IMG/VR virus record: IMGVR_UViG_3300043608_000028
Span: 1 to 56,707 of that record
From: a virus
Taxonomy: Duplodnaviria; Caudoviricetes
Length of the DNA: 56,707 nucleotides
Reading direction: 5' to 3' (one strand)
Part shown: positions 19,027 to 51,366 of the stretch, piece by piece
Layout: every line of letters begins with the position of its first letter
How positions within the stretch are numbered: the stretch's first letter is position 1
Translations under genes and position numbers: made by a program
The notes under the pieces: model-generated
Seen by the model: the letters and a program-made list of their open reading frames with translations, nothing else
What the model was told of the DNA's origin: nothing
The model's database searches: none

Positions 19027-19793
19027 GCGTCACCTCGATCGAGTGGACGGACCGAACCTGGAATCCGGTGCGTGGATGCAGCCGGCGCTTCGGCCGATTG
19101 GTCGTCGTCGGCTGGGGCGGCTGGGGAGGTACCGAGGGGAAGCGTAGACGCCGCCTCGAGTGCCTCTGCGATTGCGGCAAGTCTACCAGCACATATCCGT
19201 ATGTCTTGACCGCTGGTGAGAAGCGCTCGTGTGGCTGCCTTTTGCCATACGTTTCGGCGGCCATAGTCGTCGCCATGAACACGCGCCACGGTGAAGCAGG
19301 ACACGGAAGGAACTCACCCGAGTATAAAACGTGGAGGGGCGTCCTGAGTCGTTGTCTGAATCCGAATGGCGCCGGCTATTGGGATTACGGCGGACGCGGC
19401 ATCGGCGTGTGCGATCGGTGGAGAAAGTCGTACGTGGCCTTCCTGGATGACATGGGTCGCAGGCCGTCTCCGCGGCACACGATCGACAGGATCGACAACT
19501 CGAAGAGCTACGAGCCAGGCAACTGCCGGTGGGCGACGAAGAAGCAACAGGCGCGCAACCGGCGCAGTACGGTCTGGCTTGAAGTAGACGGGCTGCGCCT
19601 GAGCGCCGCTGAATGGTCAGAGCGAACTGGGATCCCGATCTCGGTGATTCGCGGTCGTCTGCGCAACCGCTGGGACCATCGCCGCGTCCTCACGGAACCG
19701 ATCACCGATCCAAGCGCCCGCGGCCGGCGCGGTGGCGCCGCGTCTGGCGCAGCTCGTCGCCAGCGATCCAGCACCTGGAGTCTGCCCCAATGA
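19023..19793 (+). CDS. HNH-type endonuclease with a DUF5131 (Gp37/Gp68)-like N-terminal peptide
   Basis: SIEWTDRTWNPVRGC then RFGRLVV, CLCDCG, SCGC, YGGRGI.VCDRW, TIDRIDN, YEPGNCRWAT. Confidence 0.85.
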   Translation: MSVTSIEWTDRTWNPVRGCSRRFGRLVVVGWGGWGGTEGKRRRRLECLCDCGKSTSTYPYVLTAGEKRSCGCLLPYVSAAIVVAMNTRHGEAGHGRNSPEYKTWRGVLSRCLNPNGAGYWDYGGRGIGVCDRWRKSYVAFLDDMGRRPSPRHTIDRIDNSKSYEPGNCRWATKKQQARNRRSTVWLEVDGLRLSAAEWSERTGIPISVIRGRLRNRWDHRRVLTEPITDPSARGRRGGAASGAARRQRSSTWSLPQ

Positions 19794-23544: not shown

Positions 23545-23979
23545 GTGAGCCGGGAGATTCCCGGCCACGCCAGCCGGGATCCGCAGCGCCTCTGTCCCTG
23601 CGTCCGCGAGAAGTTCCACGCGCTACAGGATGCCGCCATCGAGCGCGGCATCCTCACCAGGACCGTCGAGACGCTGCGCGACGACGCCCGGCAGGCCCAC
23701 TACATCTCGATCGGAACGAGCTGGACGACGCGAAGCCTCCACCTACCCCAGCCTCCTAACGGGCTGGCGCTCGCCTTCGACGTCGTGCCGACCGACTACG
23801 TGCTCATGAAGTCGTGGAACCCCGCGGGCCCGTTCTGGCGCGAGCTCGGCCAGATCGGGAAGGCACTCGGCCTGCTCTGGGGTGGCGACTGGCAGAGCAC
23901 GCCCGACAGGCCGCACTTCGAGCTGAAGAAGTGCCAGTGCGCAGCCCCGCCCCCGAAAGCTGAGGAGTCCATCGCGTGA
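23545..23979 (+). CDS. endolysin, M15-family (L-Ala-D-Glu-type) peptidase
   Basis: TLR...RQ, SLH, ALAFD, WGGDW, DRPHFE. Confidence 0.9.
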   Translation: MSREIPGHASRDPQRLCPCVREKFHALQDAAIERGILTRTVETLRDDARQAHYISIGTSWTTRSLHLPQPPNGLALAFDVVPTDYVLMKSWNPAGPFWRELGQIGKALGLLWGGDWQSTPDRPHFELKKCQCAAPPPKAEESIA

Positions 23980-24449
23980 GGTCTGCGCTTCTGGGGCTGG
24001 TGCTGGGCCCCGGCCTCGTGGCCCTCGCTCAGGCGCCAGCGGTCCCGCCAGAGGCGGACGACTGGCTGAAGGTGGGAGGAGCGATCGTCACGGTGACAGG
24101 CACCGTCCTGACCGCCCGCCATCTCGCCGAGCAGGCAAAGGCGAAGGCGGAGGACGCCAAGCTCACCGCGATGGCTGCCGATCAGCGGGCATCAGCCATC
24201 GGCAGCAAGGTAGACGATCTGCGCCGCGAGCTGAACGACGAGCGCGACCGCGTCACGCAACTGACGACCGAACAGCGGCGCGACCAGCAGGAGATCACGC
24301 GGCTCCGCGACCTCCGGCACAACTACATCGACCAGGAGCTGAGCCCGCGGCTTCAGAGGTTCGAGAACGGCGTCGAGGAGGTCCAGGAACGATTCGGGGC
24401 GCGTCTCGCGGTAGTCGAGGCCCTGGTCCGAACGGCACGGAGCGAGTGA
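23976..24449 (+). CDS. membrane coiled-coil protein (holin- or spanin-like)
   Basis: Signal-like N-terminus, second hydrophobic segment, long coiled coil; follows the endolysin. Confidence 0.6.
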   Translation: MRSALLGLVLGPGLVALAQAPAVPPEADDWLKVGGAIVTVTGTVLTARHLAEQAKAKAEDAKLTAMAADQRASAIGSKVDDLRRELNDERDRVTQLTTEQRRDQQEITRLRDLRHNYIDQELSPRLQRFENGVEEVQERFGARLAVVEALVRTARSE

Positions 24450-24778
24450 GGAACGGAGAGCGTGTGCCCGAGACCAAACGCCGGTACGTGCGAAAGAAGG
24501 TAACGGTGAGCGCACTCGCGGCCGTACAGGAGGAGCACGGAAAGCGCCTGGTCGATCTCGAGAGGTTGCCGGTCAGGATGAAGCGGCTCCTCCACGACTT
24601 CGAGCGGCTGCGGGAGGACGTGACGGAACCGCTCGGCGTCTTGGGCCTGCACCAGCGGGCGGCGACCCGGGTGCAACTTGCCATCGCCGAGAAGCTCGGC
24701 GTCGAAGTCGCTGCCGCCGACCTCGATCGACTGCATAAGCCGCTCCCCGGCGAGCCGTCCTTCCCGGTGAAGCTGTGA
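24446..24778 (+). CDS. hypothetical protein
   Basis: Coupled at both ends. Confidence 0.6.
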   Translation: MRNGERVPETKRRYVRKKVTVSALAAVQEEHGKRLVDLERLPVRMKRLLHDFERLREDVTEPLGVLGLHQRAATRVQLAIAEKLGVEVAAADLDRLHKPLPGEPSFPVKL

Positions 24779-26253
24779 TGGGGAGGTGGACGCTCGTCTC
24801 CTTCGCCCTCGCGTTCGCCGCGTGTGCTGGCAACCCGGATCCCTGCGGCATCCTACCCTGCAGGCCGCAGGGCACCTGCCCGGCCGGGGAAGACTGGCGG
24901 TTCCGCACCGGGGGTGACGATCCCGGCTGGCACTGCGTGCCCGTCACCCCTCCCACGACGACGACCACTACCACGACAACCACGCTTCCCCCGCCCCCCC
25001 CAGCCCCATCGCCGGTCTGCAGCCCGGGGGACACGTGCGGCTGCTGGCATCGACCTCCGGGCCAGGAGTGGCAGCAACTCCCGCCCTGCCAGGCGCCGCC
25101 GCCCGTTGATCCGATCGACCCGCCGCCGCCCGGGGACGTGGCGAAGGCCGACGGCTTCACGTTCCAGATCCTGGCCGAGTCGCGAGCGGGCTCGACCGCA
25201 TTCTTCGTCACGGCGGTACCCGTCATGGATGGTCGGCCGGTGAAGCCGAAGGATCGCCTGGCCTCGGCCGGACGTGTCGGCTGGGCCTCGACCGGATGCA
25301 TCTCCCCGAGCGAGCCGAAGGTCTTCAAGGGCTGGGGCGGAGCGGCCATCGACGAGAGCGCCTACCTCGGACCCGTGCTCAACTGGATCAGCAAGAAGGC
25401 GACGGAATGCACGGCCATCGGGAAGCCGAACAAGAGCGTGAGGTTTACGTCCTGCGCTCTCGGCAAGGCGTGGCGCATCGACTTCCCGAGTCAAGCCATC
25501 GTGGAGGTGGCGCCGGGCCCGTGCGAGTTTCCGCGCGCCACGCCGCCGCCGCCCTCGAGCGGGGTGAAGTGGAACGAGAGCGAGGCGCCCGGCAGCGCAC
25601 GCGAGGTGTGCGGCAAGGCGACGCCGAAGCACCTGGCCGCCGTGCTGGCCACGCTCAAGGGCGAGCCGCCGACCACCACGGAGAGCGAGGCCACCTTCTA
25701 CGCGCGGATCTGCCCGCGGGTCCGCGCCGCGCTGCCTGGCTGCGATTGCGCGATGTACGCCGAGGAGCTGGCCGTCGCGTGCGACAGCTCGCGCAGCGAG
25801 AACTACGACGTGCTCGCGTGGGGGTCGGAGATCCAGGCGAACCGGCTGCGCACGGGCGAGGGCACCTACCAGACGACGTGCGCGCCGGCTTCAAGATCGG
25901 CCGACATCGGAGACGTGGCCGCCCCGCCCCCCTCCGGCTCGTACCCCCGCCCCGTCTTCCAGGTGCGGGCCAAGGTCCACGTCCCCGCGGCGCAGCGGCC
26001 CGATGGGCGAGCCGTGCTCGATGCGGTGGCGCTCTCGTGCGGGGAGAACCCCGACTTCCCCGGGCGGCAGTGCTGGCCTTCGTGCGGGCCGGAAGGCTCA
26101 GCCGGCCGTGAGGAGTGCGACCGTGCCCTCGCCGTGAAGTGGGAAGGCGGGGACGAGCACCCGAGCAACCCGTGGCTGCGCCTGGTGCGGCCCGGCCAGA
26201 GGGCGCGCGTGTGCGTCGGGGTCCCGTGCTCCGACTGGGTGCCCGGCCGATGA
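24778..26253 (+). CDS. Cys-rich multidomain lipoprotein with Thr/Pro linkers
   Basis: MGRWTLVSFALAFAA-C lipobox; poly-T and poly-P linkers; more than 20 Cys. Confidence 0.8.
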   Translation: MGRWTLVSFALAFAACAGNPDPCGILPCRPQGTCPAGEDWRFRTGGDDPGWHCVPVTPPTTTTTTTTTTLPPPPPAPSPVCSPGDTCGCWHRPPGQEWQQLPPCQAPPPVDPIDPPPPGDVAKADGFTFQILAESRAGSTAFFVTAVPVMDGRPVKPKDRLASAGRVGWASTGCISPSEPKVFKGWGGAAIDESAYLGPVLNWISKKATECTAIGKPNKSVRFTSCALGKAWRIDFPSQAIVEVAPGPCEFPRATPPPPSSGVKWNESEAPGSAREVCGKATPKHLAAVLATLKGEPPTTTESEATFYARICPRVRAALPGCDCAMYAEELAVACDSSRSENYDVLAWGSEIQANRLRTGEGTYQTTCAPASRSADIGDVAAPPPSGSYPRPVFQVRAKVHVPAAQRPDGRAVLDAVALSCGENPDFPGRQCWPSCGPEGSAGREECDRALAVKWEGGDEHPSNPWLRLVRPGQRARVCVGVPCSDWVPGR

Positions 26254-26582
26254 TCGAGACGGTCGTGACCGTCGGCCTGTTCGGCGCCCTGATCCTCTGG
26301 CTGCTCTGGCCCCGGTGGGCGCCGACTTCGTGGCTGAAGTCGGCCCGCGCCTACTTCATCCGCAAGGGCTTTGAGAACTCCGAGCAGCTCGTGGCCGCTG
26401 AACTCAACCGCCGGAACTGGTGGTGGGGCCGGGTAGGCCCGTTCGACGCGGATGGCTGGTGGCGGCGTGCGCAGCCGCCGGCTGTCGATAGCGACGCCCG
26501 CACGCCGAGGAGTCTGTGGCTCGCGCTCGCGGTGGCGGCGCTAATCGGCGCCGCCCTCTGCGGGCCGATGGTCATCCCATGA
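26250..26582 (+). CDS. membrane protein (2 TM)
   Basis: N- and C-terminal hydrophobic helices; ATGA overlaps. Confidence 0.65.
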   Translation: MIETVVTVGLFGALILWLLWPRWAPTSWLKSARAYFIRKGFENSEQLVAAELNRRNWWWGRVGPFDADGWWRRAQPPAVDSDARTPRSLWLALAVAALIGAALCGPMVIP

Positions 26583-26833
26583 GCCCCGACCTCTACGAGC
26601 CGCTCCCGGGCATCCGACGCTTTCGCGAGCTGGAGATAGACGCGGCCATCGAGAAGGCCCTGGCCACCGTGCCCGACGGGGTGAACGGCGCCGCTGTCGC
26701 CTACGCCACCACGGAGGGGGCGCGCCTGGCCGTCGCAGGCCGGCTCGGCCACCAGTGGTCGATCGTCGTGGCCGCGGCCAGTGATTGGAGCGGCGAGCTC
26801 GAGGGCGAGGCCGCGGTCCGGTTCACCTGGTAG
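26579..26833 (+). CDS. hypothetical protein with beta-rich C-terminus ending in Trp
   Basis: ATGA overlap; alternating strands ending VRFTW. Confidence 0.6.
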   Translation: MSPDLYEPLPGIRRFRELEIDAAIEKALATVPDGVNGAAVAYATTEGARLAVAGRLGHQWSIVVAAASDWSGELEGEAAVRFTW

Positions 26834-26844
26834 GGGAGGCGAGG

Positions 26845-27243
26845 ATGGGAAAGGTCACGATCGTCGAGGGCTTCAAGTCGTCCCCGGGCTGGCGCAGCGC
26901 CGCGATGCTGCTGCTCCTGGTCCTCGAGGGCATCGCGAAGTCGCTGGGCTTCGAGGCGGGCCCCTTGTTCTTCATCGTGCGCAGCGGCTTCGGTGTCCTC
27001 GGGGTCAGCCCAACCGAAGCGACGGCCCTCAACATCGACCCCGAGCAGCTCGTCGTCGGCCTGACCTCCCTCTGGTTTGCGCTCTCGAGGCTCTGGTCGG
27101 TCTACAAGGAGCGCAGGGCCATCGCCGCAGCGAAGGCGGCCGCGGAGCTCGCGGCTGCTTCTGCCGATGCCGCCGCCGCCACCGCCACCGCTGCGGCGCT
27201 GGCACCGATCGCCCTCCCGCCACCGCCCGAGGCCAAGGAGTAG
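26845..27243 (+). CDS. holin-like membrane protein
   Basis: GGAGG RBS; 2-3 hydrophobic segments; Ala-rich tail. Confidence 0.6.
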   Translation: MGKVTIVEGFKSSPGWRSAAMLLLLVLEGIAKSLGFEAGPLFFIVRSGFGVLGVSPTEATALNIDPEQLVVGLTSLWFALSRLWSVYKERRAIAAAKAAAELAAASADAAAATATAAALAPIALPPPPEAKE

Positions 27244-27246
27244 GAA

Positions 27247-27705
27247 GTGATCCGCCTCGGGGCCCTGGTCGCCTTCGCCGTCACCCTCACCGCCTGCGGT
27301 GGCGGGGGAGGTGGCCGCCGTCCGCCCCAGCCGCCCAGGCCTCCCGTCGAGGTCCGCCCCTACTTCGACTGGTACGGGGCCGACGCGGGGCCGGAGCGCC
27401 GGCAGTACGCGATCGACGCCGCGAACCAGGTCGCCGCCTGCGTGGGCGTGGACCCTCGCGCCGTCTTCCACGACCACGTCGTCTACGTGTTCGACACCCC
27501 GTTCGCGTGCGGCGAGCAGGGGCCGTCCTGTGGCTGCTCGACCTACCTGACCCAGATCCAGATCGTCGTGGACGCGCCCTGCGACTACCGCGTGGGCATG
27601 GCCACCGAGCTCTTGCACCAGGTCCTCTGGTTCAACCGCGAGAACACGGGCTACGACTCGCCGCGGTGGCGGCTGGTCGAGGAAGGGGGTTGCCGGTGGT
27701 GGTGA
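27247..27705 (+). CDS. lipoprotein
   Basis: MIRLGALVAFAVTLTA-C-GGGGGG lipobox; several Cys; ATELLHQVL. Confidence 0.8.
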   Translation: MIRLGALVAFAVTLTACGGGGGGRRPPQPPRPPVEVRPYFDWYGADAGPERRQYAIDAANQVAACVGVDPRAVFHDHVVYVFDTPFACGEQGPSCGCSTYLTQIQIVVDAPCDYRVGMATELLHQVLWFNRENTGYDSPRWRLVEEGGCRWW

Positions 27706-29387
27706 GAACGCCCGATACCCTCTGCCCGAACTGCGCCGTACGCGCGGGCGCCGCGGTCCCCCATTGGCAAGGCTACGGCTCCTGCTGCGATGGCTGCCGC
27801 GCGATCCGGATCATCCGCTTCCGGCCGCTAACCCCGGCCCCGCTGCCAGTTCCTCGTGTAAACGAGCTGGCGGCCTGCGCCACCGTCCAGGCCGTTGACG
27901 AGCTGCTTGATCGCCTTGTGGCCCTCCCGGCATCCCGTGGGACGAAGCGACGGTGGCTGCGCGTGGCCAGCGAGCGAAAGCTCGCGCTGCAGGTGGTGGT
28001 GCTCCTCCTTGTGGCCGCCTCTTGCGGTGGACTGGCCATCGCAGCGCAAGCCCCGACTCCCGTGCCCTGCGCCGCCGTCGTGGCCGTCGAAGGGCAGACG
28101 CCCCTCTGCTACCCGAAGCCAGCGCCGACCCCCACCCCTCCGCCCGCGTGCGTGCCCCAGCTCGACCGCGGCGTGGTGGTCGACAAGTGCGCCCACCCCA
28201 TGACGGCCGCCGCCGAGCTGGCCGTGGGCGAGTCGCGGATCGACGCCGAGCTTGGCGGCAAGGTCACGCGCATCACCGCAGTCCCGAAGAGCCGCGGCGC
28301 GAACGCCATCGCGAAGCCCGTCTACTCGACCATGCCCGCCTGGACCGCGCCCGACGCCAACGGCAAGCGTCAGATCATGTTTTGGGTCCGGGAGGATGGC
28401 TGGTACCTGGCCGAGGACGAGGCCCCGCACAAGGTCGTGAAAAAGCTGCCGATCGGGGACCCTTGGCCGAGCGACATCGAGCACCTGTGGCCCCACCGCA
28501 CGCGGCGGGTGATCCAGTACACGACCATGAACGGGAAGACCTCCGCGGGCGTGGCGGGGAGGCAGCAGCTCGTCGAGATGGACATCGACACCGGCGCAAA
28601 GACCGTGCTCGTGGACTTCACGGCCCCCGCCTGCTCTTCGGAGCTGTCCTTAGGAAACGACCCGTCTCCGCCTTCCGCCGACGGGAGCATCCTTGGCCTG
28701 GAGTGCATCGGGACGGTGAACGGCCAGCCGGGGCAGAAGGTGAAACTCTCGTTCGACGTCGCGCAAAAGAAGGTCTTGGGCTACTTGGTGCGAAACACCA
28801 CGCCGAACGCCCCGAGCCCCACGCACAGCGGGAAGCGATTCTACTTCGACGGCCAGTCCTGGAATCAGGGGCTCACCGAGTTCTTCTCGATGGGCCTGGC
28901 CGTGGTGCACGAGCATTCCGGCAACGTCACCCTGCGCGACGGGTCGGAGTGGTACGTGGCGCCGGATTTCAGCGGCTCAGCGGACCGCGGCAACCTCGTG
29001 ATGACGAGCCTCGACTCCCCTGGCGTGGCCAAGCGCGTCGTCCTCGGTCCCGCGGCCGGGTACGGGGACACGGTCTGGAGCAAGACGCACGTCTCCTGCC
29101 TCGCCTACGACAACCCGGGATGGTGCGCGGTCTCGATCGTCGGCAACCCCGACGGGCAGGGCATCCTGTCGAACGAGATCGTCTTCGTGGACCTGAACCC
29201 GGGCGGGAAGGTCTACCGCATGGCCCACCACCGCTCCGCGGCGGGGGAGGCCGGGGGCGAGGGCTACTGGGGCGAGCCCCACGTGGTCATCAGCCCTGAC
29301 GGGACGAAGGCCATCTTCGGCAGCGACCTCGGCAAGAGCATCGCGACAGGCGGCAGCGTGGACACGTACCTGGTGGAGTTTCCGTAG
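27702..29387 (+). CDS. exported or membrane-anchored beta-propeller (TolB/oligogalacturonate-lyase-like C-terminus)
   Basis: RMAHHRS...YWGEPHVVISPDGTKAIFGSD; internal hydrophobic signal-like segment; start uncertain (27702 or about 27963). Confidence 0.7.
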   Translation: MRTPDTLCPNCAVRAGAAVPHWQGYGSCCDGCRAIRIIRFRPLTPAPLPVPRVNELAACATVQAVDELLDRLVALPASRGTKRRWLRVASERKLALQVVVLLLVAASCGGLAIAAQAPTPVPCAAVVAVEGQTPLCYPKPAPTPTPPPACVPQLDRGVVVDKCAHPMTAAAELAVGESRIDAELGGKVTRITAVPKSRGANAIAKPVYSTMPAWTAPDANGKRQIMFWVREDGWYLAEDEAPHKVVKKLPIGDPWPSDIEHLWPHRTRRVIQYTTMNGKTSAGVAGRQQLVEMDIDTGAKTVLVDFTAPACSSELSLGNDPSPPSADGSILGLECIGTVNGQPGQKVKLSFDVAQKKVLGYLVRNTTPNAPSPTHSGKRFYFDGQSWNQGLTEFFSMGLAVVHEHSGNVTLRDGSEWYVAPDFSGSADRGNLVMTSLDSPGVAKRVVLGPAAGYGDTVWSKTHVSCLAYDNPGWCAVSIVGNPDGQGILSNEIVFVDLNPGGKVYRMAHHRSAAGEAGGEGYWGEPHVVISPDGTKAIFGSDLGKSIATGGSVDTYLVEFP

Positions 29388-29389
29388 CC

Positions 29390-31078
29390 GTGGGACGCCA
29401 TAGCCCAGCCTCCCGTGCCTTCGCCCTCGCCGTCCTGGCCCTCTTGGCAGCACTCCCGGCGGATGCGGCGGCGCGCAACCTGATTCGGCCGCGGGCGCGG
29501 TCCCCGATCCTCACGCCGCTGCGCAAACCGCTCGCGCTTCGGGCGGCTCTCTTCGCATTGCGACCCGATCAGATCGACTACAAGCCGGCGCCTCCCGCTG
29601 GTGGTGGCACTCCAGGTGGGGCGGACCTGCAAGTCCAGTTCAACAGCGCGGGGGCGTTTGGAGGGGACCCCGGCCTCACCTACAACGCCGGGACCGACAC
29701 GCTCTCTGCCGGATCGGTCGCCCTAGGCGGGTTCACGTCCACCCTGACGTCTTCAGCCAACGGGGCCTTTCGGTTCAGCGGCACGAGCACGACCCTCTCT
29801 GGCGTTGCGGGCACGGCGGATCACAGCCTTTTCGTTCTTGGAGTGGACGTCTCGACTGCGGCCGCCGCTGGTAGCGTCTTCGTGCGCGGCGGCGCGGCGG
29901 GAGGAACATCGAACGACGCCGGCGATGTCGAGGTGCGCGGCGGTGCCAGCTCGGTCTCTGGCGTCGCAGGTGGAAGCGCCAGCCTATTCGGCGGCTCTAC
30001 ATCCGGATCGGCCGATACGGGAGGGAGCGTCAGCATCGCGGGCGGGGCGGGGTCAGCCCTAGGCGGCTCGGTCTTCATCAACCGCGGCTCCGGCGGAGCG
30101 AGCGTCACCGTCATCAACGGTGCCGGACAGGGCGTAGCCAACTCCTTCGTGTTCGACTCGACGGGGTCAATCGTCGTGGAGGGCGCGACGGCCGACGCGG
30201 ACGAGTTCACCCTCGCGATCGGCGACCCAACAGCCGACGTTACGGCAACGATCACGGCGACGGCCACGAATACCTCGTTCGACCTCTCCGGCGGTCACTG
30301 GAATTTTCCCGACCGCCTGACCATCGGTGAATACCTGGACGAGAACGACGCGAACGAGTCGACGCTGCTCATCCGCAAGACCACGGGCTACGTGGCCATC
30401 CACGGCTCCGGCGGGGCGTCCGACATGTTCACGGCGATCGGCACCCGCAACGACCTCGAAGCGGACGGCTCCGGGGTCAGCCAATCCGGTATCGGGATGC
30501 TGGCCTACGGCTCGGCCATCGGAGGGACCCTCTACGGGCAGAGCCGCAACAACCTGGTCGCGCTGCTATCCGAGGGTCCCCAGAACACCGGGCTCGTCAT
30601 CGGCACGGGCGGGCAGGGCGGGACCGGCCCCGTCACCATCGGCACCGAGGACGCCAATGGAGAGTACCCAAAGGCGTTCTTCTACCACGGCGCCAAGGCT
30701 CTTACGGATGGGTCTGCGGTCGAGTTCGTGGAGATCGGCATCCCAAGCAACAGTGTCACGGGCGGGACCATCGACTACTTCTTCTATGCCGTCAGTGTCT
30801 CGGGCCTTCAATCCGTTTCGGGGACGCTATGGTTCACCGCGGTCAACCTCGCCGGCACCGAGACTTGCACGGTAGGCAACACGGCCGGCGTGGACCTCAT
30901 CGGGATCGCCGCGGTGTCGTCGGGGACGCTCTCGGGCTCATTCGCGTGCGTGGTCGGGCTAACGGATGTGATCAGGATTTCGCTCAACGCCAACACCTCA
31001 TTCGCCTCGACGGCCATTTTCGAGGTCCGTTGGACCGGCTACAAGCTCGCCGGGTTCGGGAAGTTCACTCCACTGTGA
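29390..31078 (+). CDS. signal-peptide protein with tail-fibre-like Gly/Ser/Thr-rich modules
   Basis: AFALAVLALLAALPADA signal; PGGADLQVQFNSAGAFGG and EGATAD..E..L...DPTAD fibre-type motifs. Confidence 0.8.
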   Translation: MGRHSPASRAFALAVLALLAALPADAAARNLIRPRARSPILTPLRKPLALRAALFALRPDQIDYKPAPPAGGGTPGGADLQVQFNSAGAFGGDPGLTYNAGTDTLSAGSVALGGFTSTLTSSANGAFRFSGTSTTLSGVAGTADHSLFVLGVDVSTAAAAGSVFVRGGAAGGTSNDAGDVEVRGGASSVSGVAGGSASLFGGSTSGSADTGGSVSIAGGAGSALGGSVFINRGSGGASVTVINGAGQGVANSFVFDSTGSIVVEGATADADEFTLAIGDPTADVTATITATATNTSFDLSGGHWNFPDRLTIGEYLDENDANESTLLIRKTTGYVAIHGSGGASDMFTAIGTRNDLEADGSGVSQSGIGMLAYGSAIGGTLYGQSRNNLVALLSEGPQNTGLVIGTGGQGGTGPVTIGTEDANGEYPKAFFYHGAKALTDGSAVEFVEIGIPSNSVTGGTIDYFFYAVSVSGLQSVSGTLWFTAVNLAGTETCTVGNTAGVDLIGIAAVSSGTLSGSFACVVGLTDVIRISLNANTSFASTAIFEVRWTGYKLAGFGKFTPL

Positions 31079-31095
31079 GGGGGGAGCATCGGCCC

Positions 31096-32046
31096 ATGAA
31101 GCGCATAGTCCTCCTCGCCCTGAGCTCCCTGGCCTCCTGCGGCTGGAGCCCGGCCTTCGCCGGAGCGCCGCTGATCCGTCCCCGCGCCAAGTCGCCCGTC
31201 TTGGTGCCCCTGGTCAAGCCCCTGGCCGTCCGCGCCGCCCTCTTCTCGCTCCGGCCGGACCAGATCGACTACAAGCCAGCTCCGCCGAGCGGAGGCGGCC
31301 TGACCCCTGGGGCCTCGCCGGTGGGTTCGGCTACGAACTGCCTGCTCTACGCCGACGGCTCCAGCGTCCTGCAGTGCGCGGCCACCGAGGCGGGCTACGA
31401 CGGGACGATCGTGCTCGGGGACAAGGTCGGCCTGCGCGACTCGTCCGGGTCCGACACCTTCCGCTTCGCGGCCGGAAACCACCTCGCGAGCCGCGAGATG
31501 ACTGTCACGGTCAACGTGGCCAACATCGACCTCGACTTCGGGGCGCAGGGGATCCAGCTCACCGCAGGCGCCGGCACCGGGTTCGCCTACCGCCGCTCGA
31601 CCACCACGCAGATCAACTACGACGCCTCCAGCAGGCTGGCGATACCGAGCGCCGCCACCTTCGTCTGGTCGAGCACGTCGGACGCCGCGTCCGGGTCCTA
31701 CGACACCGGCCTCGCGCGCAATGCCGCGGGCGTCATCAGGGCGAGCGCCGGCGGGGCTGAGATCCGCGGCTTCCTCGGGGGAGGCGCCGCCGTGGCCTCC
31801 GCAGCGGCTCTGCCCGTGCCTACAGGCCGCGTCTTCCACGTCACCGGGACGACCAACGTCACCTCGATCACCTCGACCAACTTCGCGGCGGGCGCGGTGA
31901 TCACCCTGATCTTCGACGACGTGCTCACCTTCACGGACGGCAACAACCTCGTCCTCGCCGGGAACTTCGTGACCACCACCTCAGACGTAATCACGCTGGT
32001 CTACGACGGGACCAATTGGTACGAGACAAGCAGGAGCGTCAACTGA
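31096..32046 (+). CDS. signal-peptide protein with tail-fibre-like modules
   Basis: MKRIVLLALSSLASCGWSPAFA signal; DTGLARNAAG; C-terminal VTGTTNVTSIT...LVYDGTNWYE domain. Confidence 0.8.
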   Translation: MKRIVLLALSSLASCGWSPAFAGAPLIRPRAKSPVLVPLVKPLAVRAALFSLRPDQIDYKPAPPSGGGLTPGASPVGSATNCLLYADGSSVLQCAATEAGYDGTIVLGDKVGLRDSSGSDTFRFAAGNHLASREMTVTVNVANIDLDFGAQGIQLTAGAGTGFAYRRSTTTQINYDASSRLAIPSAATFVWSSTSDAASGSYDTGLARNAAGVIRASAGGAEIRGFLGGGAAVASAAALPVPTGRVFHVTGTTNVTSITSTNFAAGAVITLIFDDVLTFTDGNNLVLAGNFVTTTSDVITLVYDGTNWYETSRSVN

Positions 32047-32498
32047 TGCGAAAGATTCTCTGCGGGTACGCCTTCCTCCTCGCCGCGTCCTCGGCTTCCG
32101 CCCAGGAGGTCTACTCGCTGACGGCGTCAGCCGGCCAGGTCGCCCAGCACGACCGCGACCGTGCCGCGAGGAACAGGCAGACCTGCCAACAGCTCGCGTT
32201 GGCGGTGACCTGCACGCAAGCCCAAGCTTGCACGGCGGCCTCGGCCCCCGGGGGATCCGGGTGCAGCGCGGCCCAGGCTCGAGGGGCAGGCGTCCGCATC
32301 TACCCCGCGACGTTGGCCGGTCGCGAGGAGTTCCTGACCTTCGACATCGTGGCACCTGAGTTCCAGCGCCGCGTCGCGGCAGCATCGGCGGACGAGAAGA
32401 AGGCGGTCTGCTCCTGGTTCGTCGCCCAGAACACCGCAACCCAGAACGCGGAGTGCGCCAAGTGGGGCCTCCTCGACGGCTGCAACCCTTGCCAGTGA
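32046..32498 (+). CDS. small secreted protein with 8 Cys in the mature part
   Basis: MRKILCGYAFLLAASSASA|QEV; TGATG overlap. Confidence 0.8.
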   Translation: MRKILCGYAFLLAASSASAQEVYSLTASAGQVAQHDRDRAARNRQTCQQLALAVTCTQAQACTAASAPGGSGCSAAQARGAGVRIYPATLAGREEFLTFDIVAPEFQRRVAAASADEKKAVCSWFVAQNTATQNAECAKWGLLDGCNPCQ

Positions 32499-32509
32499 GG
32501 AGGACTTCG

Positions 32510-32884
32510 ATGCGACGCGCCCTCTCGTTCCTTGTTCTTGCCCTGGCCCTCGCCAGTTCGGCAAGCGCCACCTTCACCGGGAAGACCGTGTCCGTCACCG
32601 CCACGGCGCAGACCATCAGCTTCGGCGGGACCAACCATGCTCGCGTGGCCGTGACCGTGATCAACGACGGCGCCGACACCGTCGTCTTCCGCCTCTACGC
32701 CTGCGGCGAGACCGTGGTGCCGGTGGTCTTCGCAGACGGCGCGACAGATGCGGTCACGCTCAAGATCAACGAATCGGTCGGCCCAGACCACAACCCCAGG
32801 ACTCAGGGCGGGATCGCGTGGTGCGCGATGACAATCATCGCGGACACCGGCGACACCGCGACGGTCCGGCTGATGTATGAGTAG
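32510..32884 (+). CDS. small secreted beta-sandwich protein
   Basis: MRRALSFLVLALALASSASA|TFT; GGAGGA RBS; all-beta pattern. Confidence 0.8.
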   Translation: MRRALSFLVLALALASSASATFTGKTVSVTATAQTISFGGTNHARVAVTVINDGADTVVFRLYACGETVVPVVFADGATDAVTLKINESVGPDHNPRTQGGIAWCAMTIIADTGDTATVRLMYE

Positions 32885-33179: not shown

Positions 33180-33665
33180 GTGCCGGCTCGCTCCGCAAAG
33201 CCCTGCTCGCGCCCAGGCTGCCCGAACCTCTCCACGGGTGGCCCGTGCTCGTCCTGCGCCAAGGCCCACGACCAGGACCGCGGCACCTCGACCCAGAGGG
33301 GCTACGGCGCCGACCACAGGAAGCGTCGCGCTCGATGCCTCGACGACTACCCCATCTGCCCCGACCCCTTCGGCCTCCACCCTGGCCAGGTGCGGCCCTC
33401 CACCGTGGCCGACCACTGGCTGGCGAAGTCGGCCGGCGGGGCTGACGCGCAGGAGAACTACACGGGCCTCTGTGACGCGCCCTGCCACCAGCACAAGCGC
33501 CAGCGCGAGGCGCGCGGACTGTTCGAGCATGGCCCCCGCCCTGCGTTTACACGAAGAGGGGAATGGGAGTCCGAATCTCTACCGCCCCAGGCCCCAGGAA
33601 CCGCGCGTGGTCATGAAAATGTGCCCTACGGGTTGGGGACTTCGCCTACGGGTGGGGATGGCTGA
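33180..33665 (+). CDS. packaging-associated HNH endonuclease (HK97 gp74-like position)
   Basis: PCSRPGCP, RGYG, VADH, GG....N..GLC..CH..K; directly before terS. Confidence 0.85.
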   Translation: MPARSAKPCSRPGCPNLSTGGPCSSCAKAHDQDRGTSTQRGYGADHRKRRARCLDDYPICPDPFGLHPGQVRPSTVADHWLAKSAGGADAQENYTGLCDAPCHQHKRQREARGLFEHGPRPAFTRRGEWESESLPPQAPGTARGHENVPYGLGTSPTGGDG

Positions 33666-34198
33666 TGCCTGGACCCCCACCGAAGGCCGCGCGCCTGCGC
33701 CAGCGGACGAACAAAGTCTCGACGACCGCGACCCTGCCCCCGGACGGCCATGTCCCGACCCGCGAGATGCCGCCGCTGCCGGTGCGGGAGTGCCGCCCCT
33801 GCGATGGCGTCGGGAAGTTCAAGGCTGAAGGGGCGAAGCAGCCGACGCCCTGCACCTCGTGTGCGGGCTCAGGGGTTTGGGATTGGCACGAGCGGACGCA
33901 GGCGATGTGGGCGCGGCTGTGGCGCTCGCCAATGGCGGGCGAGTACGTCGAGGCCGACATCGACAGGGCATTCATCATGGCCGACCTGGTGGACCGCTAC
34001 TGGTGGGGCGAGACCGAGCTGGCCGCGGAGATCCGGCTCCAGGGCCAGTGCTTCGGCACGTCCCCGCTTGACCGGCGCCGGCTTCAGTGGGAGATCGGGA
34101 AGGTCGAAGAGCAGGCGAAGCGACGGCCGCCGCAGGAAGCTCCGGCGGGCCGAGGCAAGCGTCGCGCGCCGCTCAGCTACCTGAGGGCGGTCAAGTGA
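33665..34198 (+). CDS. terS: terminase small subunit
   Basis: MPGPPPK, W..LW.SP.A, AEIRL....FG.SPLDRRRLQWEI; precedes terL. Confidence 0.85.
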   Translation: MPGPPPKAARLRQRTNKVSTTATLPPDGHVPTREMPPLPVRECRPCDGVGKFKAEGAKQPTPCTSCAGSGVWDWHERTQAMWARLWRSPMAGEYVEADIDRAFIMADLVDRYWWGETELAAEIRLQGQCFGTSPLDRRRLQWEIGKVEEQAKRRPPQEAPAGRGKRRAPLSYLRAVK

Positions 34199-35847
34199 TC
34201 ATCTGCGTCCCAGAGATCGAGCCGCCGAAGAAGGCGTGGCCATCGCTCGGCCCGCAGGTCGTGGAGTTCATCGAGGCGAACCTCGTCTTCGGCCCTGGCG
34301 ATCTGCGCGGCATGCCGGCCCGAGTGGACGACGAGAAGCGCGACCTGATCCACCGAGCCTACGAGGTTTACCCAAAGAGTCACGCCCTCGCGGGTCGGCG
34401 CCGCTTCAAGCGAGTCGCCTGGAGCCTGCGGAAGGGGAGCGCGAAGACCGAGTTGGCGGCATGGATTGCGGCGTGCGAGCTCAGCGACCGGGCTCCGGTG
34501 CGCACCATCGGCTGGGAAGGAAAGAAGCCCGTCGGCGGGCCCGTCTCCGACCCCTACATTCCCATGATGGCCTACACCGAGGACCAGTCTGAAGAGCTGG
34601 CCTACGGAGCCCTGCGCGTGATCCTTGAGAACAGCGAGATCGCGAGCGATTTCGACATCGGTCTAGACCGAATCATGCGTGTCCGTGGTGACGGCAAGGC
34701 TGAGGCCGTGGCCTCGGCGCCGAACAGCAATGACGGGGCTCGCACGACCTGGCAGCACTTCGACGAATCTCACCGGATGACGCTGCCCCGGATCAAGCAG
34801 GCGCACCAGGCCATGCTCGCCAACACCCCCAAGCGCAAACTCGCGGATGCATGGAGCCTGGAGACCACGACTGCTTTTTCTCCAGGGGAAATGAGCGTTG
34901 CCGAGGACACCTGGGGCTACGCGCAGGAGATCCTGGAGGGGAAGAAGAAGGACGCCAAGCTGTTCTTCTTTCACCGCCAAGCATCGACCGAGCATGACCT
35001 CACGACGAAGAAGGGCCTCCGCGCCGCCATCGCGGAGGCATCCGGCCCCGTGGCGGAGTGGTCGGATCTTGCCGGGATCGAGGACCAGTTTGCAGACCCC
35101 ACCCGGGATCGGACCTATCTCGAGCGCGTCTGGCTGAACCGTCCGACGCGGTCGGCGGATACCGCTTTCGACTCGACGCGGTGGGCAGCGCTGGCGAAGC
35201 CTCACCTCGTCCCGAAGAGAGCCGCCATCACGCTTGGCTTCGATGGTTCCCGTTCCATCGACGCGACCGGGCTCGTGGGGACCGAGATCGTCACCGGCTA
35301 CCAGTGGGTGCTCGGCGTCTGGGAGCGGCCGGCCAACGTGAAGGACTGGAAGGTTCCAGTAGCCGAGGTCAACGCACTGGTCGAGCACGCCTTTGCTTAT
35401 TGGGATGTCTGGCGCCTCTACGCCGACCCGCCCTACTGGGAGGACGTAATCGCCGAGTGGATGGCGAAGCACAACCCGGAGGAGATCGCCGAAGCCCGCG
35501 TCGTGAAGTGGTATACGGCCAGCTCCAACGCCAGGAAGATGGCCTCCGCCGTCCTGGCCTACGCCAACGCGATCTCGCAGGAGGACGTGCAGGCGGCCGC
35601 GCTCTCGCACGACGGGAACGAGGCCTTCGCCCGGCACATCGCGAACGCCCACAAGCGATCCTCGCAGCTCAAGGACGAAAGGGGCGTCCCGATGTGGACG
35701 ATCCAGAAGGAGCGACCCGACTCGCCGAAGAAGATCGACCTCGCCATGGCGGGGATCTTGTCGTGGCAGGCGCGAATGGATGCGCGCGCCCTCGGCGTGG
35801 GGAATGCCCCTCCGAAGCAGAGCTACAAGGTGGAGTTCGCAGGATGA
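34195..35847 (+). CDS. terL: terminase large subunit
   Basis: RKGSAKTE, FDESH, LGFDGS..IDAT, KKIDLAMA. Confidence 0.95.
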   Translation: MIICVPEIEPPKKAWPSLGPQVVEFIEANLVFGPGDLRGMPARVDDEKRDLIHRAYEVYPKSHALAGRRRFKRVAWSLRKGSAKTELAAWIAACELSDRAPVRTIGWEGKKPVGGPVSDPYIPMMAYTEDQSEELAYGALRVILENSEIASDFDIGLDRIMRVRGDGKAEAVASAPNSNDGARTTWQHFDESHRMTLPRIKQAHQAMLANTPKRKLADAWSLETTTAFSPGEMSVAEDTWGYAQEILEGKKKDAKLFFFHRQASTEHDLTTKKGLRAAIAEASGPVAEWSDLAGIEDQFADPTRDRTYLERVWLNRPTRSADTAFDSTRWAALAKPHLVPKRAAITLGFDGSRSIDATGLVGTEIVTGYQWVLGVWERPANVKDWKVPVAEVNALVEHAFAYWDVWRLYADPPYWEDVIAEWMAKHNPEEIAEARVVKWYTASSNARKMASAVLAYANAISQEDVQAAALSHDGNEAFARHIANAHKRSSQLKDERGVPMWTIQKERPDSPKKIDLAMAGILSWQARMDARALGVGNAPPKQSYKVEFAG

Positions 35848-36026: not shown

Positions 36027-37712
36027 ATGGGCATGCTCACCGAGTCCTTTGCGCCCCGAGCTCAGGCCAGCGCCGGAGCCGGCCCGATCGACGAGTTCTG
36101 GTACCGCGACATCTCCGGCTACCTGGCCGAGACCGGCTCCTCCGGGATCGGCCTATCCGCCGAGACGATCCTGAACTGCTCGACCGTGCTGGCCGCGGTT
36201 CGGTTCCGTGGGGACTCCTGGGCGATGTGCCCGCCGGCCACCTTCCGAAAGACGCCCAGTGGCCGACAGGAGGACCCCACGCACTATTCCCAGCGCGTGC
36301 TCCGGAAGCCGAACACGTGGCAGACCGGGAACCGCTGGCGGCACCTCAACGGCGTCTGGATGGCGACGTGGGGGAACGCCTACAACGAGATCGTCGCGGG
36401 CGCCTCCACGTTCGCGAAGGAACTGCGACCGTTGCATCCGTCGCGCTGCCGCGTCGCGGACCAGAGGTCTGACGGGACCCTGGTCTATCGCTACGAGCCG
36501 GCCGGCGAGGACGCGCGCACGCTTGGCCAGGAGAAGGTGCTGCACTTCAGGGACCTGAGCACGGACGGGCTCAGCGGCGTGCCGATGTACAAGCTGATCC
36601 GGAACGTGGTGGGGATCGCACTCCTGGCAGAGCGGCATGCATCGACGTTCCTGCGCAAGGGTGCCCGATCGGCCGGGGTTATCGTCCCGGATCGACCGCT
36701 CGCTCCAGAGGAAAGGTCCGACCTCATCGACTCCATCAATAAAGGCTTCGGCGGAGTCCAGAACAGCGGGACCTACGGGCTACTGCCGCACGGCGTCAAG
36801 CTCGAAGAGGCCCCTACCTCGACGAACCGCGACGGCCAGGTGCTCGAGATCGGCGACCAGGTCGTCCGGGCGCTGCTTCAATTCATGGGGGTTCCCGGAG
36901 TCGTCGTGGGGTTTGCCGACAAGACGGCGACCTACGCCAGCGCCAAGGAGTTCTTCGAGAGCGGCGGGATCAAGCACTGCGTGCTCCCGATCCTGTCGAA
37001 TGTCGAAGCCGAGGAGGATGCCGCCCTGCTCGTTGAGGGCGATGGGCGCTTCATCAAGCATAACCTCGACGTCCTGCTCCGGGCCAACACGATCGACCGC
37101 TTCAGCGCGCTCTTTAAGGCCGTGGGTGGCCCCTGGATGACCGTCAACGAGGCGCGGCGGGTCGAGGACATGAACGAGGACCCGGATCCCCGCCACGACG
37201 AGATCCTCACGCCCGCGAACATGTCACCGCGTGACGATCCGGAGCCGGACGACGAGCCTGGCGCCCAGCCGCCCGTCCCGAACCCGATCGAGCCGGAGCC
37301 GGAGGGGGAGATGCGCCGTCCGACCGTGGCCCCGAAGGCGCTGAAGCCGGCGCCGCCGGAGTCCGAGGACGAGCAGGCGGCGCGGGCCAAGCTCCTGGCC
37401 GAGCAGTTCGCGCTCGACGCTGCTGCTCGGGTCGTCCGGCGAGAGATCGCTGCCGTGAAGGGGCCGAACGGCGGCGGCGCCGCGGTGAAGTACGCGAAAG
37501 ACCCGGAGAAGTGGCGCGCCTGGGCGCTCGACTGGTACGCCAAGCACGAGAGCCACGTGGCCGAGACGCTCCACATCCCAGCGGAAGCGGCCCGCGCCTA
37601 CGCGACGGCCCAGCGGGACGCCCTCCTGGCCGGCGGTGTGGCCGTGGTTGAGACGTGGGAAGAAACCGTGCCGCACCGGCTGGCGGCCCTGGTATTGGAG
37701 GGGACATGCTGA
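36027..37712 (+). CDS. portal protein (HK97 family) with C-terminal extension
   Basis: KPN.WQT, GNAY, PLHPSR, VLHFR, DGLSG, WMTVNEARRVEDM. Confidence 0.95.
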   Translation: MGMLTESFAPRAQASAGAGPIDEFWYRDISGYLAETGSSGIGLSAETILNCSTVLAAVRFRGDSWAMCPPATFRKTPSGRQEDPTHYSQRVLRKPNTWQTGNRWRHLNGVWMATWGNAYNEIVAGASTFAKELRPLHPSRCRVADQRSDGTLVYRYEPAGEDARTLGQEKVLHFRDLSTDGLSGVPMYKLIRNVVGIALLAERHASTFLRKGARSAGVIVPDRPLAPEERSDLIDSINKGFGGVQNSGTYGLLPHGVKLEEAPTSTNRDGQVLEIGDQVVRALLQFMGVPGVVVGFADKTATYASAKEFFESGGIKHCVLPILSNVEAEEDAALLVEGDGRFIKHNLDVLLRANTIDRFSALFKAVGGPWMTVNEARRVEDMNEDPDPRHDEILTPANMSPRDDPEPDDEPGAQPPVPNPIEPEPEGEMRRPTVAPKALKPAPPESEDEQAARAKLLAEQFALDAAARVVRREIAAVKGPNGGGAAVKYAKDPEKWRAWALDWYAKHESHVAETLHIPAEAARAYATAQRDALLAGGVAVVETWEETVPHRLAALVLEGTC

Positions 37713-38749
37713 GCCTCATCGACAAGATCGCCGGGCGCCCGTGGGCCGTGGATGGCCGTCTCGCCGCCCAGGTGCGCGCCATCGTCGTCCGGGACGGGTT
37801 CAGCGGCCTCCGGGCCCTGGCCGAGCTCAAGGGCGGGATCCATGCCTTCGACGAGGACGAGCGGAACGAGCGCCAGGCGGCGCGCCGCGGTGGCGGCCGC
37901 CAGCGTGCCGGCGGAATCGCCGTCGTCCGGGTGATCGGCACCATGACCCAGCGGGCCGAAGTCATCAACAGCGTGGAGACGCGCTCCACGGCATCCGTAG
38001 CCGAGGAAGTAGCGGAGGCCGTTGCCGACTCGGAAGTCGATGCCGTGGTGCTCGAGATCGACAGCCCCGGCGGCGAGGTGTTCGGAGTCCCCGAGGCTTG
38101 GGCCGCGATCCGCGCCGCGGCGAAGCAGAAGCCCGTCGTCGCCTCCGCGAACAGCCTGATGGCCTCTGCCGCCCTCTACGTGGCGTCCGCGGCCTCCGAA
38201 ATTTGGGTGACGCCGTCAGGCGAGGTGGGATCGGTCGGGGTCTACGCCCTGCACGTGGACGCCTCCAAGGCCCTCGAGGACATGGGCGAGAAGTGGGAGT
38301 TCGTCGAGGCCGACGACTCGCCCTACAAGGTAGAGGGGAATCCCGCAGCCCCGCTGTCCGTGGAGGGTAGGGCGCAGATCAAGAAGGCGGTGAACCGCTA
38401 CATGGGCTACTTCGTGCGCGACCTCGCAAAGGGGCGCGGCGTCAGTGAGCACCACGTCAAGGAGAAGTTCGGCAAGGGCCGGATGCTGGGTCCTGAGGAG
38501 GCCGTGGCGGCGCGCCTGGTGGACCGGGTGGGCACCCTCGAGCAGGCGATCCGCCGGGCCGGTGAGATGGCAACGGAGCGGCGCCGCGGCGCGGCCCTGC
38601 CGGCGGCCGAGGTGGATGCGCCCGAGGTCACGGCCGAGGCGCCCGAGGCGCCCGCAGCGCCACCTACGGCGCCGGTCGTGGACGCGGCGGGGGAGCTGGA
38701 GGCCAGGTCTCGGGCAGCCGCGCTGGAGGCCCTGCGGGGCAGCCTGTAG
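37706..38749 (+). CDS. S49-family head maturation protease
   Basis: IDSPGG, MASAALYVAS, VGSVGV, GLVD-like RLVDRVG. Confidence 0.92.
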   Translation: MLSLIDKIAGRPWAVDGRLAAQVRAIVVRDGFSGLRALAELKGGIHAFDEDERNERQAARRGGGRQRAGGIAVVRVIGTMTQRAEVINSVETRSTASVAEEVAEAVADSEVDAVVLEIDSPGGEVFGVPEAWAAIRAAAKQKPVVASANSLMASAALYVASAASEIWVTPSGEVGSVGVYALHVDASKALEDMGEKWEFVEADDSPYKVEGNPAAPLSVEGRAQIKKAVNRYMGYFVRDLAKGRGVSEHHVKEKFGKGRMLGPEEAVAARLVDRVGTLEQAIRRAGEMATERRRGAALPAAEVDAPEVTAEAPEAPAAPPTAPVVDAAGELEARSRAAALEALRGSL

Positions 38750-39120: not shown

Positions 39121-39173
39121 AGAGCGCTGAGCGGGTACCGAGAAATCGAGTTCTCGGTGCCAGCCAGCGCTCT
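39121..39173 (+). promoter_or_regulatory. long hairpin in the major capsid leader
   Basis: AGAGCGCTG/CAGCGCTCT outer and GGTACCGAGAA/TTCTCGGTGCC inner stems, then TTCTGCGTT. Confidence 0.65.
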
Positions 39174-39204
39174 TTCTGCGTTGCCGGGCACCCAGGAGGT
39201 TGCG

Positions 39205-42806: not shown

Positions 42807-42809
42807 CCG

Positions 42810-43157
42810 ATGGACTCCGGCAAGCGCGACAAGCTGATCAGCATCGAGCAGGCCGTCTCCACGCAGGATCCGGTCTCCGGCACCGAGTCCCTGGACTGGC
42901 ACGAGATGGCGCGCCCCTGGGCGAACGTGCGCACGCCGAACGGGTCGGAGGTGTTCCGGGCGGAGCAGCAGGTCGCGAAGGTGAACGCGATCTTCAACGT
43001 CCGTTTCCGCGAGGACGTCACGCCCACCGAGACCTTCCGCATCGTCTACGAGGGGCGCACGTACGACATCACGGCCGTGGTGCAGCCGCTGGGGGCGGCG
43101 CGGCGGACCGAGATCGAGCTCTACGGGTTCGCCCGGGCGGAAGCGCCCCCGGAGTGA
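42810..43157 (+). CDS. head closure / stopper (SPP1 gp16-like)
   Basis: GKRDKLISIEQ, WA.V...G.E, VRFR.DV, RI.Y.GR.YDI. Confidence 0.9.
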   Translation: MDSGKRDKLISIEQAVSTQDPVSGTESLDWHEMARPWANVRTPNGSEVFRAEQQVAKVNAIFNVRFREDVTPTETFRIVYEGRTYDITAVVQPLGAARRTEIELYGFARAEAPPE

Positions 43158-43161
43158 CGGC

Positions 43162-51359: not shown

Positions 51360-51366
51360 GAGGTCC

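Follow-up and report, generated by a model that had tools for sequence, protein, structure and literature searches.

A 39-residue proline-rich module behind the signal-like segments of two fiber-like proteins in an uncultured siphophage

Secondary receptor-binding proteins (RBPs) of K1-5/SP6 and of several groups of Klebsiella phages are described in PMC6872550 as docking through group-specific conserved N-terminal peptides of variable length, seven residues or more. The branched arrangements named there include gp46/gp47 of K1-5, K1E and SP6 on the adaptor gp37, the KP32-, KP34-, Menlow- and PhiK64-1-group Klebsiella phages, and gp63.1 of G7C on gp66, where the contact surface of gp63.1 is positively charged. 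PMC13352976 reports experimental validation. The element considered here is a 39-residue module that occurs twice in IMG/VR record IMGVR_UViG_3300043608_000028, an uncultured phage; the window analyzed is this whole virus record of 56,707 bases. The module stands behind a signal-peptide-like segment near the N-termini of two fiber-like proteins, A and B, and its sequence is conserved between them.

The branched systems are the nearest known parallel. There, as here, a short conserved N-terminal sequence precedes divergent, horizontally exchanged bodies, a pattern seen in this case in one within-genome pair, and two different RBPs of one phage share an attachment logic. The positively charged contact of G7C also resembles the basic module. 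However, the peptides of branched RBPs are the true N-termini of cytoplasmic proteins, whereas in both genes of this phage a signal-like segment of 25–30 residues comes first. The branched systems possess a T4gp10-like branching domain or an adaptor, and none was found here in Pfam and PHROGs scans of 55 open reading frames (ORFs). The module is moreover longer (39 residues), proline-rich and an orphan, and its genes lie outside the tail module. It is thus not filed as a member of the branched-RBP docking peptides; that it works like one is the likeliest of the readings considered, and is put forward tentatively.

Three other kinds of protein invite comparison. The anchors of T7 gp17 and of the P22 tailspike, the latter a head-binding domain, are folded and comprise roughly 100–150 residues. 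A conserved N-terminal anchor followed by an exchangeable C-terminal specificity part is the general plan given for tail fibers and tailspikes in PMC8262889 and PMC12692247. The order of attachment part and exchangeable part is the same here, but the anchor domains are folded and have no export signal, whereas the module has 39 residues and no confident predicted structure. Exported proteins are also encoded beside the tail or lysis genes of tailed phages, among them lambda Lom and Bor, T5 Llp and phi80 Cor. Like A and B they are products of signal-peptide or lipoprotein genes next to lysis or tail genes, but they are small envelope proteins with neither fiber architecture nor address peptide, whereas A and B are fiber-like and B carries a tail-fiber tip domain. 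Finally, the N-terminal translocation domains of colicins are disordered and contact periplasmic proteins through short TolB or TonB boxes. The module may likewise offer an unstructured N-terminal peptide as a linear epitope to an envelope partner, by mechanistic analogy only; a β-propeller receptor is possible, and the protein encoded upstream of A, up489, has a weak propeller lead. In contrast to the colicins, the module has no recognizable box and no sequence similarity to them, and the fibers would travel outward by Sec rather than inward.

Two copies of one module

The adjacent genes A and B lie on the same strand and comprise the following segments.

29390..29479, + strand: signal-peptide-like N-terminus of fiber A, MGRHSPASRAFALAVLALLAALPADAAARN (from the ORF, an upstream GGTGGAG and a hydrophobicity heuristic)
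29480..29596, + strand: module copy 1 (fiber A), 39 residues, 8 Pro, 8 Lys/Arg versus 2 Asp/Glu
29597..29608, + strand: AGGG hinge of A
29609..31078, + strand: body of fiber A, opening with the Gly-rich fiber motif 'GGADLQVQFNSAGAFGGD'
31096..31170, + strand: signal peptide of fiber B, MKRIVLLALSSLASCGWSPAFAGAP, of Sec type (AFA-G, cleavage at the hyphen) or lipoprotein type (LAS-C)
31171..31287, + strand: module copy 2 (fiber B), 39 residues, 8 Pro, 7 Lys/Arg versus 2 Asp/Glu
31288..31299, + strand: SGGG hinge of B, where similarity to the nearest relative, P0004, begins (B residue 67)
31300..32046, + strand: body of fiber B, with a C-terminal tip domain at about residues 230–316 (nucleotides 31783–32043)

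A preliminary description of this DNA had noted two 39-residue stretches, identical at 33 positions and rich in synonymous codon differences, lying between unrelated signal peptides and unrelated downstream domains, each ended by a glycine linker; it had taken the peptide to be basic and conserved at the protein level. The observation is confirmed. Translation yields both stretches, which agree in 33/39 residues and 80/117 bases. Of the 39 codons, nine are the same in both copies, while 24 show a synonymous and six a non-synonymous difference. By the Nei–Gojobori method the proportion of synonymous differences (pS) is 0.76, which is saturated and beyond Jukes–Cantor correction, against 0.13 for non-synonymous differences (pN). 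The module is under purifying selection at the protein level only; synonymous sites are saturated, with fewer identical codons than independent draws would give.

BLASTP of whole A against whole B returns the N-terminal stretch as the sole match (E 5e-25). Identity is 10/25 in the signal-peptide part and 33/39 in the module, and falls to 10/39, 8/40 and 8/36 in the next three blocks, flanks that stand at 20–26%. The best other ungapped pair of 39-mers between the two proteins matches at 14/39, and a six-frame search of the whole record revealed no third copy.

None of the eight prolines varies between the copies, nor does any of the last 12 residues (RPDQIDYKPAPP), and four of the six substitutions are conservative. 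A proline falls every 4–5 residues in the first half of the module; one 11-residue Leu/Ala-rich stretch follows, and then the invariant end. Proline makes up 8/39 of the residues and the net charge is +5 to +6, so that the module is both proline-rich and basic, with five arginines among the first 21 residues and a LALRAALFAL cluster. The hinge that follows is AGGG in A and SGGG in B. In an AlphaFold2 model of B (60-row alignment, mean predicted local distance difference test score (pLDDT) 69) the body reaches pLDDT 80–93. Most of residues 25–63 lie below 50 as coil, except for a three-residue helix at 55–57; the alignment is without depth over the module, and these low values mean only that nothing confident is predicted there. 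The module is probably disordered, judging from this model, and low pLDDT would be expected of a peptide that folds on its partner.

The silent differences between the copies exceed chance. The same codon is used at 9 of the 33 conserved residues, below the expectation for independent draws under each of three codon tables.

Whole-genome codon usage: 16.6 identical codons expected; P(9 or fewer) 0.0026
Local-operon codon usage: 15.8 expected; P(9 or fewer) 0.0053
Gene-specific codon usage: 14.9 expected; P(9 or fewer) 0.0092

Copy 1 has G-ending codons at 19/39 positions, compared with 29% in the rest of gene A, and copy 2 has C-ending codons at 21/39. The longest run of identical DNA is 17 nucleotides. 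Divergence of this kind at silent sites rules out recent gene conversion. The module may have been acquired twice, from differently biased sources, or selection may act against DNA homology between the copies, which are direct repeats 1.7 kb apart in a genome with RecE/RecT-like genes. Both suggestions rest on 33 codons and are leads only.

As far as sequence searches reach, the module appears to be an orphan within 1.84 billion representative proteins and three contig collections. A HMMER profile of the two copies, whose 45 positions see close relatives only, gave one match among the 1.84 billion representatives (E 1.9e-6), a 1050-residue repeat protein with 'FRPDQIDY' six times that is taken as chance; the representatives are clustered at 50% identity and may hide members, and A and B themselves were not returned. 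A word-indexed search among longer proteins yielded only B itself, one of 72 candidates. Pattern scans, which require near-exact words, produced 59 matches in viral contigs, 383 in metagenome contigs and 341 in one-genome-per-species contigs, none of them confirmed. No common post-signal module was seen among the paralogues of 29 other loci, most of which have only one or two signal-bearing ORFs.

Fiber bodies, export signals and the glycine hinge

The tip domain of B (316 residues), formed by its last 80–110 residues, matches phrog_33904, 'tail fiber protein' (E 7.6e-7). In Foldseek searches of BFVD the tip aligns with the C-termini of phage tail-fiber and pectate-lyase-superfamily proteins at probability 1.00, with a root-mean-square deviation of 2–3 Å over 67–96 columns; a search of the PDB gave no match at E 0.001 or better. 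The C-terminal domain of B is a widespread tail-fiber or tailspike tip domain. Elsewhere it is found in a gene that follows the tape measure and distal tail genes (locus L006) and in one between phrog_399 structural genes (L005), and signal-peptide forms occur between phrog_399 structural genes (L007) and just 5' of the terminase (L004). Protein A (562 residues) has a Gly-rich shaft whose opening 'QVQFN..GAFGGD' motif recurs in other fiber-like proteins, and its C-terminal half (residues 250–562) is common to only two database proteins, with 75% identity to one of them, P0124. A profile of B's family set against the rest of A scores an hhalign probability of 0.2%, and the two bodies appear unrelated as far as this test sees. 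A common first fiber unit after the hinge, suspected by eye, was dropped at the same value.

The signal peptide of A requires initiation at GTG 29390, which lies two nucleotides past the upstream stop and has GGTGGAG 12 nucleotides on its 5' side. The public gene call (P0123) uses TTG 29444 and lacks the signal; this start is without such an upstream site and would halve the hydrophobic segment. Read from GTG 29390, the N-terminus consists of MGRHSPASR, AFALAVLALLAAL and PADA-A, a signal of Sec type with no lipobox cysteine. In B, GGGGGGAG stands 9 nucleotides 5' of ATG 31096, and the other in-frame starts are upstream, inside gene A or overlapping its stop. The signal of B runs from MKR through IVLLALSSLA to LAS-C or AFA-G, and the lipobox-like LASC makes B a possible lipoprotein. 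All signal-peptide calls here combine inspection with a heuristic that scores hydrophobicity and charge; on that basis A and B both display the features of Sec or lipoprotein signals, namely a basic n-region, a hydrophobic h-region and a cleavage site or lipobox.

The cysteine content of B's relatives bears on export. There are 231 homologues at E 0.001 or better, and the counts given here refer to the best 120 of these, of which 46 are signal-peptide-like by the heuristic. A cysteine pair inside the tip domain is present in 25/46 signal-like proteins and 2/74 others (Fisher P 3.6e-11, relatedness ignored); the two exceptions, P0018 and P0121, have no M start and look truncated. At least two cysteines are found in the mature part of 41/46 signal-like proteins and 31/74 others (Fisher P 1.4e-7, relatedness again ignored). 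On a tree of the 105-residue tip domain, only two independent pairs on supported branches bear on the association of signal and cysteine pair, which leaves this control without power. B itself has a Cys-x13-Cys pair that is kept in the signal-bearing relatives P0007, P0019 and P0040 and is absent from the signal-less P0004. The association fits export to an oxidizing compartment.

Comparison with the nearest database proteins shows how these fibers are put together. P0004 is 71% identical to B over residues 67–316, a stretch that starts at the hinge and includes the C-terminus; the 21 residues that P0004 has ahead of it are unrelated to B and contain no signal peptide. P0007 has residues 71–219 of B in common, with another signal peptide and another C-terminus, and P0124 has residues 250–562 of A in common behind a different hydrophobic N-terminus. 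These comparisons mark the glycine hinge as the joint at which heads and bodies are swapped. The module and its signal peptide thus appear, from the alignments, to be a separate swappable N-terminal cassette bounded by the hinge.

In 15/46 signal-bearing and 18/74 signal-less homologues of B, the first 30 or so residues of the (mature) protein contain a short head and then a GGG run. The module occupies this head position and is three to five times longer. Other signal-less homologues have N-termini that look like typical tail-fiber starts, and the module would accordingly lie at what is taken here as the attachment end of the family. In P0095, a homologue of B, the mature start (residues 18–31, QDIQFRPAASAGGG) resembles the end of the module together with its hinge (DQIDYKPAPPAGGG), and the two occupy equivalent places ahead of the first fiber unit. 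The match is weak (E 0.29, the only one in a local hmmsearch over 145 proteins), a lead and no hit. It is possible that the last 10 residues of the module descend from the short head of the family and that the basic 29-residue part was added.

Possible roles of the module

The 39 residues may constitute a linear peptide, tethered by glycines, that serves as a docking element or address and works behind an export signal in the manner of the branched-RBP N-terminal peptides. This reading is preferred here, with a confidence that stops short of calling it probable. Each fiber would begin with its own signal peptide, and after removal of the signal the module would form the first ~40 mature residues. 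One common partner would recognize it stereospecifically as a linear motif, which would bring both fibers, with their different distal domains, to a single site. The hinge would serve both as flexible tether and as recombination joint for the exchange of bodies. Export, signal cleavage, binding and the partner are inferred; a tail or adaptor protein encountered at lysis might be that partner, or else an exported protein of the same operon. The 489-residue upstream protein, up489, is one candidate. A 1002-residue distal tail protein (52637–55645, + strand) is very acidic (net −54, isoelectric point 4.8) and is a conceivable electrostatic partner of the basic module.

The near-uniform conservation of the module seems to fit stereospecific recognition better than a generic charge or spacer, and the presence of two unrelated bodies behind one module fits an address or docking tag. 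The docking tag of the preliminary description thus gains from conservation at the protein level, the swappable cassette, the head position and the two unrelated bodies. No partner or attachment site emerged, and nothing in the analysis connects the module with the capsid protein, the 40705 protein or the tail tube; the trimerization and pro-peptide roles offered with it have no support of their own.

Several points weigh against docking. The particle of a tailed phage is assembled in the cytoplasm. Since A and B carry export signals, docking to the virion would need a step at or after lysis. No description of signal-peptide-bearing tail fibers of tailed phages, or of a post-lysis docking step, was found in the literature covered, which did not extend to subscription journals. 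No T4gp10-like or adaptor family was found among the 55 window ORFs scanned in Pfam and PHROGs. A third signal-bearing, fiber-like gene (50160–51359) is without the module. The module has no relatives, and its conservation is that of one within-genome pair; its low pLDDT may just reflect the missing alignment depth.

A bolder version is that the phage arms itself outside the cytoplasm. Fibers would be exported, disulfide-bonded in the envelope and plugged by the 39-residue peptide into a common phage-encoded socket, either an exported adaptor or a tail tip met at lysis, with two interchangeable specificities on one site; silent divergence would keep the RecE/RecT-like system from deleting the gene between the repeats. 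This version is improbable as it stands. Were docking itself true, the module with its glycine hinge would be a compact, transferable address tag for different host-recognition modules, as sought in modular phage engineering. A tag placed behind an export signal would also give a handle on the role of the signal-bearing fiber-like proteins of many uncultured phages, and on where they meet their partners. Should the module prove to be no more than a linker or to modulate export, the interest would be local.

The main rival is suggested by an anomaly of charge. The first 18 residues past a crude cleavage site carry a net charge of +4 in A and +3 in B, compared with a mean of 0.05 (standard deviation 0.9, maximum +2) in 44 other signal-bearing homologues; neither protein has the neutral or acidic early mature region expected of Sec proteins. 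According to PMC5468347, secretion in E. coli is blocked when positive charges are introduced early in the mature domain, and arginine and hydrophobic clusters are disfavored at mature positions 1–33. The five arginines in the first 21 residues of the module and the LALRAALFAL cluster are of just this kind. The segment might therefore be an export brake or membrane-retention element that slows or blocks Sec or holds the protein at the inner membrane, and the fibers would stay at the membrane or in the cytoplasm up to the loss of membrane potential at lysis. Yet charge and hydrophobicity would suffice for a brake, which calls for neither 85% identity across the 39 residues nor unvarying prolines and an unvarying acidic/neutral tail, DQIDYKPAPP. 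The Cys-x13-Cys pair of B, absent from the signal-less P0004, suggests that B reaches an oxidizing compartment, and the export rules cited are those of E. coli, which may not be those of the host. A brake is unlikely on balance. The basic charge is kept despite a likely export cost, or else is the point of the module.

It is less likely again that the module is a second-step sorting signal or envelope tether, recognized after Sec by an outer-membrane or cell-wall factor of host or phage and holding both fibers at one place in the envelope. The partner could be a secretion channel, lipoprotein surface-exposure machinery, peptidoglycan or lipopolysaccharide. Post-signal targeting segments exist elsewhere, for example N22 of CsgA. 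Such a role agrees with the position of the genes, which lie outside the tail module in a series of signal-peptide or lipobox genes that links lysis to terminase, and also with the lipobox of B and the suitability of a basic module for anionic envelope polymers. However, none of the scanned ORFs matched a channel, usher or secretin family, and A lacks a lipobox cysteine, so that lipid anchoring is not a common feature. A signal directed at the host should also turn up in host proteins or other phages, and none was seen in the 1.84 billion representatives or the three contig collections.

A pro-peptide cleaved after folding, or a nucleus for trimerization, is quite improbable. Fibers are normally trimers, and the module does lie between a cleavage site and a flexible hinge. 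Its eight prolines, though, leave no uninterrupted stretch beyond 11 residues, which is not enough for a coiled coil, and relatives with the same bodies (P0004, P0007 and P0124) fold without it; no protease site or intramolecular-chaperone family was detected. That the module is a functionless relic of duplication or recent gene conversion, as two adjacent genes on one strand might suggest, can be set aside almost entirely, for recent conversion would leave near-identical DNA rather than 80/117 matches with a longest run of 17 nucleotides, an old neutral duplicate would have diverged like the flanks (20–26% identity), and pN is far below pS.

The operon and the genome

The fiber genes sit between the lysis genes and the HNH/terminase genes, outside the tail module, in a series of genes that each encode a signal peptide or lipobox. 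The given + frames are the coding ones by plots of third-position G+C and frame, and the overlapping minus-strand ORFs are the usual shadows of high-GC DNA. The immediate neighbors of A and B are as follows.

27918..29387, + strand: up489, the 489-residue upstream protein (third-position G+C frame plot, candidate starts), start GTG 27918 or 27963
32046..32498, + strand: gene C, Cys-rich, about 150 residues, with a signal peptide; its ATG overlaps the stop codon of gene B
32510..32884, + strand: gene D, 124 residues, with a signal peptide; the last gene before HNH and terminase

The stop of up489 falls two nucleotides before the start of gene A. The protein has an N-terminal hydrophobic segment (membrane anchor or lipobox, with a lipobox-like VAASC) and a Pro/Thr linker. 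It gave no Pfam, PHROG or PDB match and no relatives among viral contigs; a weak ESM Atlas lead (0.85) points to β-propellers of the oligogalacturonate-lyase (PL22)/PD40 kind and is treated as a lead only. The small exported proteins encoded 3' of B show no similarity to those 3' of the signal-bearing fiber in locus L004. Further upstream, the gene at 24775–26253 (+ strand) encodes a 492-residue lipobox protein that contains 25 cysteines as well as linkers of poly-Thr and poly-Pro. A 152-residue lipobox protein (27247–27705, + strand) has the mature start CGGGGGG followed by a basic, Pro-rich RRPPQPPRPP, a stretch that is like the module in composition and not in sequence.

Fourteen window ORFs are flagged by the signal heuristic. 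Two flags, at 7717–8154 and 19206–19793, were judged false calls, and the 12 accepted ORFs with a signal or lipobox include nine from 23976 to 32884 and three in the head–tail module (43592–44170, 50160–51359 and 51340–52629). The first of these three (+ strand) has a signal-peptide-like N-terminus and matches phrog_22694, of unknown function; the last (+ strand) is a 429-residue orphan with a similar N-terminus. The gene at 50160–51359 (+ strand) is unlisted, lying inside a long spurious ORF (49065–51359). Its product starts with a signal peptide (MTRVAFAVSLALLAARADAQ) and continues through some 60 residues, two of them cysteines, and a GGGGG hinge into a fiber-like body with a weak DUF5907 repeat (E 0.0016). 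Its neighbors in the tail module are a 217-residue post-tape-measure gene and another signal-bearing gene.

The first 127 bases of the record recur at its end and indicate a circular or terminally redundant map of 56,580 bp. The window is a complete 56.6-kb siphophage with a G+C content of ~69%. Pfam and PHROGs scans give a siphophage gene layout.

23545–23979: M15 endolysin
23976–24449: coiled-coil gene near the endolysin
33180–33665, + strand: HNH endonuclease, directly before the small terminase
33665–34198: small terminase
34087–35847: large terminase (TerL)
36027–37712: portal
37655–38749: S49 head protease
39157–40677: HK97-type capsid protein
42180–43578: connector and tail-completion genes
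45887–49513: tape measure

A packaging-associated HNH endonuclease usually sits directly before the small terminase. The distal tail genes cross the end of the record and reach base 381. RecE/RecT-like recombination genes, two DNA methylases, a helicase and RusA are also encoded. The idea that A or B is an o-spanin, an Rz1-like Pro-rich outer-membrane lipoprotein, was rejected: A has no lipobox cysteine, the proteins have 562 and 316 residues, and their genes lie ~5–7 kb from the endolysin and the coiled-coil gene.

No match to the window was obtained by blastn against phage records, and no tRNA genes were found in it. The closest TerL matches are 64% identical on a 2.3-kb contig and 66% identical over a 53-residue C-terminal fragment, and those on short viral contigs reach only 36–37%. 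Two genome-bin fragments matched in the TerL search are both without the upstream region. The second HNH endonuclease gene (19023–19793, + strand) is surrounded by replication genes. A pentapeptide-repeat protein (PF00805, E 1.6e-49) is encoded at 4543–5427 (+ strand), in a gene built on 15-nucleotide tandem repeats whose array spans 4506–5163, with copies ~90% alike.

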